In this document: piece by piece, positions 4,783 to 60,734 of the stretch | How positions within the stretch are numbered: the first letter of the stretch is position 1 | Layout of the letters: every line of letters starts with the position of its first letter | Source of the DNA: Methylocystis sp. KS32 | Lineage (GTDB): Bacteria; Pseudomonadota; Alphaproteobacteria; Rhizobiales; Beijerinckiaceae | DNA length: 64,000 nucleotides | NCBI GenBank assembly: GCA_002862095.1 | Contig: PHSQ01000004.1 | Coordinates: forward strand, 56,261 to 120,260 | Direction: 5' to 3' | Program-made: the position numbers and the translations under genes | The notes under the pieces: generated by a model | What the model was told of the DNA's origin: nothing | What the model saw: the letters and a program-made list of their open reading frames with translations, nothing else | Databases searched by the model: none

Positions 4783-5251
4783 GCAAAATAACATTCGCAA
4801 TTAGGGCGGCGACACCTCCGCGACCCTTGCGTCGATCCACGACAGCGCGTTGTCGAGCTTCGAGACGCCGTCGGGGTCGTTTGCGATCTTACTCAAAGGA
4901 ATGCCGGGGTATTTTTCCAGTTGAGCGTCCGTGAGAGTAACGCCCGCTATTGAGGCAAATAAGCTCAATAGTTTTCGGCGGGTTTCCACGGAGCCGAATA
5001 CCGGTTTTCCGACGAGCGCGCCGAATTGAATGTAGAGTTTGCCGTTCGTCGAAAGGTAAAGTGGGGCCATACGCACGCCGTTGGGCCGAATGACAGCGGA
5101 AATCGAACCGCTTTGTCCGCCGCCATAAGCAATCTCTCGATCGCCGCGGCGCATCCAATCGAAAATGTGCCGTGCGACATCTACTTCTGGCGGGCTCGCA
5201 TCATGCGCCAACGCCTCATAGAAGGTGCTTTCGTTCCAATCGCGCTTAGTA

Positions 5252-5514
5252 CTACTGCGTCATGAACGAATTTATCGGCGGTTTCGTCATTGCGAGCCGA
5301 AGGCGTGGCAATCCAGGGGGGCTGGCGCGGCTTAAGGATTGCTTCGCTGCGCTCGCAATGACGGGCGCGCAATCCAGGGGGCTGGCCCACCCCGTCATTG
5401 CGAGCCGAAGGCGTGGCAATCCAGGGGGCTGGCGCGGCTTAAGGATTGCTTCGGCTCGCGCTCGCAATGACGGGCGCTGGCCCGGCCCCAGGCCGCTTCG
5501 TGACGCAGTAGAAT
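5252..5514. mobile_element. MITE-like unit A (263 bp) with two CGTC-type REP doublets
   Basis: Ends CTACTGCGTCA / TGACGCAGTAG(AAT), flanked by TA (5250-51, 5515-16). Contains two copies of CGTCATTGCGAGCCGAAGGCGTGGCAATCC...GGATTGCTTCG..GCTCGCAATGACG. Confidence 0.8.
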
Positions 5515-5516
5515 TA

Positions 5517-5629
5517 GAGCAAAATCCGAAAAAGTTGATAGACTTTTTCGATTGGATTTTGCTCCCGCTTTTTGAATCTGGAGCGATTTCTTAATCGACC
5601 AGACGATTCCGTCTGGTCGGAAAGCGCTC
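5517..5629. mobile_element. MITE-like palindromic unit C (113 bp)
   Basis: GAGC...GCTC ends flanked by TA; two internal hairpins (GAAAAAGT-TGATAG-ACTTTTTC; CGACCAGACG-ATTC-CGTCTGGTCG). An inverted second copy is at 60117-60228. Confidence 0.8.
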
Positions 5630-5631
5630 TA

Positions 5632-5789
5632 ATTCTACTGCGTCCTGAACGAATTTGTCGGCGGTTTCGTCATTGCGAGCCGAAGGCGTGGCAATCCAGG
5701 GGGCTGGCGCGGCTTAAGGATTGCTTCGGCTCGCGCTCGCAATGACGGGCGCTGGCCCGGCCCCAGGCCGCTTCGTGACGCAGTAGAAT
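5632..5789. mobile_element. MITE-like unit B (158 bp) with one CGTC-type REP doublet
   Basis: 14-bp TIR ATTCTACTGCGTCC / TGACGCAGTAGAAT (13/14 match), flanked by TA (5630-31, 5790-91); near-identical to parts of unit A. Confidence 0.82.
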
Positions 5790-6066
5790 TAGCTGCATTT
5801 GCGTTTCGCCTGTCCCGCGTTTCCTGAGTTTGCCCAAAAACCATCGGGATAATTGTCTCTATATCGCCTTCACCGCGATATCGTCGCAGCTCAATCGCAA
5901 GAACCTCAGCGTTTCTCATCTGATCGTTAAGGAACTCAACGACGCGTCGCAATTCAATTGGAATCTCATCAGCGACGAACAATAGCCGTAACCGGCCATT
6001 GTCAAGATTTTCTTGCGCATTTTTCCAGTATTGCTCAACGCCGTCAGTGCTGTCTTCGGACGGACT

Positions 6067-6571
6067 CTAATTTTCAACCCCATAAATCTCCCGCACCTTC
6101 ACCTCCATCCCCGGCGGATCGAGCGCAATGGTTCCGTCCCGCAGGATGCGAGTCAGAATGTCTTCGCCGTGGCGCTGGTGGTGGATGACGAGGACTTTAT
6201 CGGGATCGATGATGAGATAATGCGCGACCCTGGGCAGGCGGAAATAATCCGCCAGCTTGCGGCCGCGATCCACGCGCCCGGGCGAGGGGGGAAAGCATCT
6301 CGACAATGACCACCGGGTTTTCGACGAGCATGGCCGATGGCGGCGGCTTCTCGCCTCAATAGACCATGGCGTCCGGCTCATAGGCCGTCGTCTCGTCGAT
6401 CCTGACGGTCGCCCCATCCGGCACGACATGGCAGGGGAGCCCCTTGGCGCGCACGGCCGCCGGCAGGGCGACATGGGTGGCGGGTTTCTTCTCCCAATGC
6501 GCCGCCCGCTCGGCCCAGGCGAGAAATTCATCGACGCTCATGCGCGCCGGCGTTTGCGGCTGCGTGCACAT
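6067..6571 (-). pseudogene. Uma2/DUF820 family endonuclease pseudogene
   Basis: MSVDEFLAWAE..GLPCHVVPDGATVRIDETTAYEPDAMVY*GEKPPPSAMLVENPVVIVEMLSPS..KLADYFRLPRVAHYLIIDP; in-frame TGA at 6358-6356; N-terminal segment looks shortened relative to the family. Confidence 0.85.
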
Positions 6572-6746
6572 GGGCGGGAGAATAACGCATTGGGCCAGAA
6601 ACGGCCATGCGTCGCTTGCGCCTCCAAAACAGGCTCCCTGCGACAATCTGAATTTGTGTCTCTCTATTGACAGTAAATTGTAAAACTGGCCTATGCCCCG
6701 CCGGGGAGAGGCTCCGGATAAATAAATCAACCGAGGAAACACCAAG

Positions 6747-59856: not shown

Positions 59857-60734
59857 ATGGGGCTGTCGCTCGCGCGAGCGATTATGGCCCTAACAGTTTC
59901 GCTCATGCCGCTTCATGCTCTCGCGCGGGAGCATCAGAGCGGCGCGACGTTCAATACCGAGCACACATTTGGCTTTTCGGAAGGAAGCGATATCGGCGAC
60001 AAAGGCGAGAGCGAGATCGAAGGCGCCACGGTCGGGCGCGTTGGCGCAAGCCAGAGGGTTTAACCTCCTTCACCGATGAGACGTCTTACCGATATGGCTT
60101 GGAGCAGAGCTTCCTGGAGCGCTTTCCGACCAGACGGAATCGTCTGGTAGATTAAGAAATCGCTCCAGATTCAAAAAGCTGGAGCAAAATCTAAAAAAAA
60201 TGTCTATCAACTTTTTCGGATCTTTCCCTAGCCTCTATCGGCGCGATGGTCGATTATTCCAGCATTCACGGTTCGCCGGCTTTGGGCGACAAGACCGGAC
60301 TGGAATATAGCGACGTCTCTACCGAATTCCGCTGGCATTTTCTGGAGCACGACGCCGAGCCCATCGGCCTCGCCCTCTCTTTCGCTCCCAATTGGCGCCG
60401 CACCAACGATTCCGCGCCGGGGCAGGGCGAAAGTTTTTCAATGCCTGTGACGCTGCTTGTCGACAAGGACCTCATTCGCTACCAGCTTTATGCGATCTTC
60501 AACGCGACGTTGGAGCCAACTTTCAATAAGCTCGCGGGAGGGTGGCGCGCCCTGCAGCCGATGGAGCTTTCCGCCGCCGTCATCGCCGCGGTGGGCGTCA
60601 GGATTGTCCTCGGCGGCGAAATCCTCCCCCAACTCTCTCATAACGAGGATGGGATTTTCGCCAGCCGCGCGCTCTATGCGGGTTCCACCCTTCTCGTGAG
60701 GTCGCACCGGGATCTGACGATCAAAGCGGCGTGA
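59857..60734 (+). pseudogene. Disrupted exported/outer-membrane hypothetical protein (TEH.FGFSEGSDIG family)
   Basis: Signal peptide plus FNTEHTFGFSEGSDIGDKGESE; frameshift near 60044-47; MITE at 60117-60228; the frame resumes ASIGAMVDYSSIH..STEFRW. Confidence 0.75.
60117..60228. mobile_element. Second (inverted) copy of MITE unit C
   Basis: First ~75 nt match the reverse complement of 5517-5629 with 2 mismatches; flanked by TG/TA. Confidence 0.85.

Follow-up and report, generated by a model that had tools for sequence, protein, structure and literature searches.

How did three miniature mobile elements come to lie end to end within a single gene? The question is raised by a stack of repeats at positions 5250-5791 of a 64,000-nucleotide (nt) stretch of Methylocystis sp. 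KS32, referred to here as the window (C3:56261-120260 in the genome that we searched, which comprises 3.36 Mb in seven contigs, with 61% G+C and two pmoA copies, and is probably that of a methanotroph). The initial annotation described three abutting units in the order A-C-B with a TA dinucleotide at all four borders, and both the layout and the lengths are exactly as it gave them: TA 5250-5251, unit A 5252-5514 (263 nt), TA 5515-5516, unit C 5517-5629 (113 nt), TA 5630-5631, unit B 5632-5789 (158 nt) and TA 5790-5791. We also agree that the three elements are non-autonomous and represent two families, A and B sharing inverted ends and C being distinct, and the copy numbers of the families in the genome (169 matches for C and about 45-50 copies for A/B) show that the stack is not a chance arrangement. 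The same annotation explained the stack by successive insertions, each reusing the TA regenerated at the edge of the previous element. On the sequence evidence presented below, the stack most likely reached this site as a block and was not built in place.

One target duplication around three units

The borders of A and B first assigned to the TA dinucleotides hold in part. TA is indeed present at the edges, but the flanks of the family across the genome place the real edges one base further in, and the repeat is a 4-bp YTAR sequence of which TA is only the centre. With this correction, the core of A occupies 5250-5513 (plus strand, 264 bp) and that of B 5633-5788 (plus strand, 156 bp), and the core of the whole stack (5250-5788, 539 bp) lies between one TTAG at 5246-5249, directly 5' of the A core, and another at 5789-5792. 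For A alone the flanks agree (TTAG/TTAG), for B alone they differ (CTAA/TTAG), while those of the whole stack match (TTAG/TTAG). The inner junctions are TTAG at 5514-5517 (J1, the last T, the TA at 5515-5516 and the first G of C) and CTAA at 5629-5632 (J2, the last C of unit C, the TA at 5630-5631 and an A).

Deleting the core together with one TTAG (5250-5792) restores a single reading frame on the minus strand. It joins 4801-5249, the distal, C-terminal part of a gene for a DUF4268/DUF91-like hypothetical protein, to the proximal part of the same gene remnant at 5793-6066, and the empty site would read TTAGCTGC. The joined frame encodes 240 residues, which correspond to the C-terminal two-thirds of DUF4268/DUF91-like proteins of about 380 residues; the closest homologue, P0001 (389 residues, 79% identity), aligns without a gap over the joint (NANAAKRDW in the former, NANSAKHDW in the latter). 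Excision at the TA borders given in the initial annotation would leave one extra codon. In an empty-site comparison with 40 relatives the interrupted gene itself was absent from all of them, and protein homologues were used in its place. The gene was already a remnant before the insertion, since its first ~140 codons, present in the homologues, are missing upstream beside a decayed Uma2-like gene. This neighbour (window 6067-6600, a weak match to PF05685) contains an in-frame stop; it is immediately upstream of the interrupted gene and joins it at ...gaaaaTTAGagtcc...

The same order, orientations and junctions (J1 = TTAG, J2 = CTAA), with a 100% identical C, recur at C3:182337-183321 and C7:366421-366900. 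The former is a B-C-B-C-B-C-B array with a 276-nt period and one outer CTAA duplication, and the latter lies inside another copy of C. At J1, the sequence GTAGAA-TTAG-AGC is also found in the other B-C-B copies; at J2, GCTC-TAA-TTCTAC is identical in eight copies from five loci. All eight B copies that stand to the right of a C (five loci) have C in place of A at position 13 of the end, the left end of B in the window (TTCTACTGCGTCC, position 5645) included, and these copies are identical from about position 77 of C to about position 80 of B and differ in their outer parts. C itself is 100% identical among the blocks, as compared to a family median of 93.8%.

Assembly in place at a TTAG predicts CTAG at J2, and assembly of the array at a CTAA predicts a different J1. 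Neither was seen, which indicates that the inner junctions were inherited; at each locus the deviation is confined to the junction that differs from the outer duplication there. As in a composite transposon, one duplication brackets the whole, and the block recurs with another duplication while its inner junctions stay identical. The initial annotation had allowed that A-C-B occurring always as one fixed block would speak for one element and not for sequential stacking: solitary copies of A/B and of C are the rule in this genome, yet A-C-B does recur as a fixed block. Successive insertion at this particular locus is at odds with the single TTAG pair around the stack and with inner junctions that are identical elsewhere.

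We therefore prefer, with a probability of about 0.68, to read the stack as a composite of an IS701-type MITE (a miniature transposable element with inverted repeats), the C MITE and a second IS701-type MITE, formed once elsewhere and moved as a block by an IS701 transposase in trans. At the place of origin, C would have entered, at its TA, a TTAA that adjoined A/B-type elements or lay between them, composite formation being based on the fact that both families target YTAR and regenerate YTAR at their edges. The composite would then have been copied as a block into a TTAG inside the gene remnant, with one 4-bp TTAG duplication. The likeliest agent would be an IS701-family DDE transposase acting in trans on the outermost left and right ends, and outer-end transposition is the most economical route for the block; the position-13 change in the inner left end of B may weaken that end and favour movement of the whole.

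In composite transposons of the Tn10/Tn5 type, other DNA lies between two like elements, and the outer ends of the pair serve for movement, with a single target duplication. Unlike in those, the cargo of the stack is another MITE and not genes, all parts are non-autonomous, and the composite expands into tandem B-C arrays. In nested plant MITEs and in the bacterial interspersed mosaic elements (BIMEs) of E. coli, miniature elements have a preference for inserting into, or beside, one another. In terms of such systems, A and B are IS701-derived MITEs with a cargo of repetitive extragenic palindromic (REP) sequences, C is a TA-duplicating MITE, and the stack is akin to composite transposons, BIMEs and nested MITEs.

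IS701-type shells and the C family

All A/B-type ends in the genome were located and paired. They read TTCTACTGCGTCA...TGACGCAGTAGAA, and the target is YTAR, of which 4 bp are duplicated; in unit A the left end is TACTACTGCGTCA (5250-5262, one mismatch to the family end) and the right end TGACGCAGTAGAA (5501-5513). Identical 4-nt flanks were found in 30 of the 45 A/B copies, all of them NTAN (CTAG 9, CTAA 8, TTAG 8, TTAA 4, CTAC 1), while 100,000 shuffles of the right flanks gave 9.1 ± 2.6 matches, and at most 20. The base that had been taken as the first of the element (A or G) co-varies with the opposite flank and hence is part of the duplication. IS701-family elements are 1400-1550 bp long, have the end consensus ---YACT-Y--YR and duplicate "exactly four" bp (PMC2266710). 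TTCTACTGCGTCA fits this consensus (T4 A5 C6 T7, C9, C12, A13); the purine at position 13 is conserved in the family (PMC2266710), and it is this position that holds a C in the inner left end of B.

Full-length relatives carry the same ends. We scanned one genome per prokaryote species for the exact pattern of the A/B end; most hits were chance 17-mer matches and only those in Hyphomicrobiales were informative. Among the matches listed were elements of 1511-1539 bp with A/B-like ends in Lichenihabitans and in other metagenome-assembled genomes (MAGs) of Hyphomicrobiales. One end of these elements, TTCTACTGCGTCACGAAG, matches the right end of B and the other, TTCTACTGAGTCACGAACG, its left end, and ends of the form TTCTACTGCGTCACGAAG / TTCTACTGAGTCACGAAC occur on them together with TTAG or TTAA duplications. 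In two of them (L050 212-1750 and L056 2079-3589), the single long frame encodes an IS701 transposase (PF13546; NF033540 at 430.8 bits, the cut-off being 150). Within the genus, NF033540 scored above its cut-off in 14 of 31 sampled genomes, and a sister species has a 1487-bp IS701 element (L138 1399-2885) with TTTTACTGTGTCATAA ends and a CTAA duplication. As far as sequence can show it, A and B are miniature derivatives of an IS701-family insertion sequence: they have its end sequence, its 4-bp duplication and relatives of 1.49-1.54 kb with the same ends (PMC2266710). They differ from such insertion sequences in having no transposase gene, in keeping only ~18-20 nt at each end, in an interior made of one or more CGTC REP dimers, and in the lack of an intact partner element in the host genome.

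In a MAG of Alphaproteobacteria/Beijerinckiaceae we found a 295-bp element (L061 25-319) that shares the IS701-type ends and is flanked by a CTAA duplication; in its subterminal parts it is unlike B, and the stretches read contain no REP motif. The same ends may have given rise to different miniature elements in other genomes.

The initial annotation had placed A and B among IS630/Tc1-mariner MITEs. The 4-bp YTAR duplication, the fit to the IS701 consensus and the full-length IS701 elements speak against that assignment, and neither of the IS630-family elements of this genome has ends like ATTCTACTGCGTCA or TAGAGC, as that view would have required: the 16 DDE_3 matches represent two element types, with ends GTGGCCGCCGTCATTGC and TTAATCAGTTCATAA, neither of which matches either unit. 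Genome-wide, no transposase with A/B or C ends was found within 2.5 kb of any match to PF01609 (29) or PF13358 (16), and the ends determined for 14 repeat families of the genome include none like A/B or C. Remains of the IS701 transposase itself are seen at C4:68571-68831, C7:209057-209283 and C6:485316-485480, as decayed fragments (the best, with stops, at 36.9 bits), one of which adjoins a degenerate end, TTCTACTTAGTCACGA.

Unit C (5517-5629, plus strand, 113 bp) belongs to a high-copy family with 169 non-overlapping blastn matches in the genome, 127 of them at least 100 nt long and 82 full length, the latter being 93.8% identical (median) to the copy in the window. Its ends, GAGCAAAATCCGA / TCGGAAAGCGCTC, form an imperfect 13-bp inverted repeat (GAGCAAAATCCGA and GAGCGCTTTCCGA match at 9 of 13 positions), and it folds as two terminal hairpins, one per end (-50.3 kcal/mol, z = -6.1). 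Among the full-length copies, a pyrimidine stands at -3 in 80 of 82 and a purine at +3 in 80 of 82, and TA is found on both sides in 58. The terminal G and C are constant whatever the flank, which indicates that C duplicates TA within a YTAR target; together with an empty-site comparison, these flanks bear out the earlier view of C as a TA-duplicating element of a different family. Of 31 genomes of the genus, 21 contain C, with identities of 77-86%, and the family hence is old; in a plasmid collection, only a plasmid of Methylocystis iwaonis had a match, 71% identical. The window has another C copy (60117-60228, reverse, flanks TG/TA), which interrupts an outer-membrane-like gene; when 114 nt are removed, the frame aligns without gaps with orthologues in five sister genomes.

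The parentage of C may be IS630-type or IS5/IS427-type, equally. Like IS630/Tc1-mariner (Stowaway-like) MITEs, C duplicates TA within Y-TA-R, mostly CTAG, and an IS630-family element of the same genome does likewise (cTA|GTGGCC...GGCCAC|TAg). Neither of the two IS630-family elements in the genome has ends matching those of C (GAGCAAAATCCGA), and A/B are not of the IS630 kind at all. Ends of the IS427 group of the IS5 family typically start with GA or GG. No element with C-like ends that could serve as an autonomous parent was found in the genome, relatives having been searched less than exhaustively. Three candidates for a C-ended element were set aside: at C6:403532-405427, a rhodanese-like gene together with an unrelated transposase fragment is enclosed by two copies of C; the C copy at C6:1105520 is truncated and adjoins an IS5/IS1182-like transposase frame that is itself truncated and unrelated; and at C1:196767-199580 a split C surrounds housekeeping genes. 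At C6:810565-810903, three head-to-tail copies, with one base between pairs, are identical to the window C over 112-113 nt and have no B context, which points to recent activity or tandem amplification of that C variant.

Shared targets and alternative histories

Both families draw on one rare target. CTAG occurs 1,799 times in the genome as compared to 11,825 expected from base composition, a six-fold under-representation, and CTAA, TTAG and TTAA are depleted too. On its two sides, C restores YTAG and CTAR through its terminal G and C, an insertion of B yields two complete YTAR copies, and 4.3% of all YTAR sites in the genome stem from the two MITE families. Of about 45 independent B-family loci, about 12 are at or in C, whereas C-associated sites make up 4.3% of YTAR sites (binomial p ~3e-7, a figure that ignores selection against genic insertions). 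There are 23 B-type ends out of 129 that abut a C end, two B insertions lie in the internal TTAA of C, and C-C tandems are present as well. Insertion into a target regenerated at the edge of a previous element, as the initial annotation supposed, is on these counts common in the genome. The order of arrival is mostly unreadable because both orders yield the same sequence. B duplications that include the terminal base of C were considered as proof that B came after C, and this argument was dropped, since a shared G or C fits both orders. A three-fold tandem of B, 84 nt of unique DNA and C was found at C7:62245-63407; its joints recreate the C-TAA-B junction, possibly via CTA microhomology.

Stepwise stacking at the window locus would have B arrive before the others, C enter its left TA and A land at the new left edge. 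The regeneration of YTAR by each insertion and the excess of B-family loci at or in C favour such a history, as do the matching TTAG flanks of A alone and the C variant of the stack, which is the most recent in the genome and forms the B-free trio of identical tandem copies on C6. However, it predicts GCTC-TAG-TTCTAC at J2 where TAA is observed, the flanks of B itself differ (CTAA and TTAG), and the same J1, J2 and position-13 change are found in blocks with an outer CTAA duplication. Its rescue would require three insertions and a later conversion, and we regard it as improbable. A serious alternative, to which we would give more weight while still considering it unlikely, is conversion of a solitary B by a B-C-B donor: B alone would have entered at TTAG, with C and the second B copied later from a B-C-B locus by ectopic gene conversion or unequal recombination. 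The blocks are indeed mosaic, with an identical core (C and ~60-80 nt on each side) and diverged outer halves, the tandem B-C arrays and the three-fold duplication on C7 show that recombination acts on these repeats, and no intact IS701 transposase is present in the assembled genome. Yet most of the B differences lie in the REP hairpin, where quasi-palindrome templated changes recur (the GC/TC stem variant, for example, is a templated change that makes the REP stem perfect), and mosaicism need not mean conversion. This route also needs a solitary B already at the exact site, which is plausible, yet adds one event.

It is far less probable that the repeats are functional intergenic modules, such as terminators or RNA elements, that were spread by duplication and are not mobile. 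All units fold strongly, and REPs are often thought to be RNA or terminator elements (PMC3733652), but the stack interrupts a coding frame, another C copy splits a second gene, and exact target duplications, of 2 bp and of 4 bp, are seen at dozens of unrelated sites; an Rfam search with the units matched no family. The composite moved as a block from elsewhere remains our preferred reading, and several observations weigh against it. While C is 100% identical among the blocks, their B parts share only 95-97% identity, which fits ectopic gene conversion or fast hairpin-templated change as well as it fits recent block transposition. A is flanked by TTAG on both sides, and a C-B block that arrived before A, with A added later at its edge, would give the same final sequence. 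At C1:186877 and C7:62700, a B next to a C has its own intact CTAA duplication, and the C-B junction may have arisen more than once and then been homogenised. The homologue argument for a 4-bp over a 2-bp outer repeat uses one protein, at 79% identity. As to current mobility, the assembled genome of the window (92.8% complete) holds no intact IS701 transposase, only fragments, although a copy may have been lost from the assembly.

REP dimers as cargo of the shells

The right 125 nt of A are exactly those of B and its left 74 nt are 95% identical to B, and A contains twice the internal hairpin module of ~108 nt that B has once (the repeats inside A lie ~107-109 nt apart), and its two modules arose via internal tandem duplication. 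Two-module relatives of A are found at C7:62442-62700 (95% identity), C3:318413-318669 and C7:626746-627022. The modules are REP dimers, located in A at 5285-5363 (plus strand, CGTCATTGCGAGC...GCTCGCAATGACG) and 5393-5472 (plus strand, an inverted-repeat pair), and in B at 5668-5747. In each, CGTCATTGCGAGC...GGCAATCCA is paired with its own inverted copy as a head-to-head dimer. CGTC-tagged REPs have a CGTC tag, a stem starting with AT, a CCA tail and a head-to-head dimer arrangement (PMC3733652), and the A/B interior shows all of these, with CGTC-ATTGCGAGC...GGCAAT-CCA followed by the inverted copy ...GCTCGCAATGACG. The stem of the monomer is interrupted (ATTGC...GCAAT around a longer middle) as compared to the published 8-9 bp stem with a 4-5 nt loop (PMC3733652), and the dimer hairpin dominates the fold.

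The suggestion that a REP doublet was captured inside a shell of terminal inverted repeats is supported by the sister species, where the same dimers occur naked in unique DNA, often just 3' of stop codons. When 30 genomes of the genus were sampled, matches were confined to B positions ~36-116 (the dimer), at 75-83% identity, and the complete shell with its dimer is confined to the genome of the window in this comparison. Within that genome, 126 of 342 REP-arm motifs (~37%) lie between paired IS701-type ends and 72 more beside one end, and some IS701-type shells contain tandem arrays of the REP-dimer module. REP dimers are also regularly found inside long palindromes in A. variabilis and H. neapolitanus, and no dedicated transposase is known for CGTC REPs (PMC3733652). 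Our repeats agree with those described there in tag, AT stem start, CCA tail, head-to-head dimer and palindromic shell, and differ in that the A/B shell can be assigned to a DDE family (IS701), with 4-bp target duplications.

The REP material takes further forms in the genome. Minisatellite-like arrays of the dimer are located at C3:12314-12997, C7:17020-18223, C4:90287-91310 and C6:1230423-1231239; some such arrays are bounded by IS701-type ends, and several contig ends fall inside them. Stem variants of the dimer recur across A/B copies (e.g., CTTCGGCTCGC and CTTCGCTGCGC), making the hairpin perfect or imperfect, and are spread mosaically among the copies, as quasi-palindrome templated mutation or gene conversion would give. 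Hybrid repeats at C7:608236-609064 and C3:19810-20128 begin with the left hairpin of C, continue with ggtaaagggcgac and then with REP-dimer arrays, the one on C7 being closed on its other side by an A/B-type end. There is also a second subfamily of A/B, whose right subterminal segment (GCAGAAACTGGAGCGGTAAAGGGGAAC) is similar to the central part of C.

These results correct the family of A and B from IS630 with a TA duplication to IS701 with a 4-bp YTAR duplication, and they offer a concrete case of CGTC-class REP dimers that were packaged in a transposable shell and amplified to about 50 copies. They thereby bear on the remark in the REP literature that CGTC repeats have no known transposase. 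Nothing here falls outside known mobile-DNA biology; what appears modestly new is the tie between CGTC REP dimers and an IS701 shell, which puts the shell in a DDE family, and the B-C-B composite that recurs with an altered inner end. Tentatively, CGTC-tagged REP dimers may have multiplied in this genome inside shells of IS701-type ends, and if this were general, IS701 DDE transposases could be a vehicle, perhaps even a source, for the spread of REPs in Alphaproteobacteria, with composite MITEs that carry a crippled inner end as a possible route to larger mosaic repeats. By sharing one rare target, two families give rise to mosaic repeats, to composites and to tandem arrays, and these break genes and fragment assemblies.

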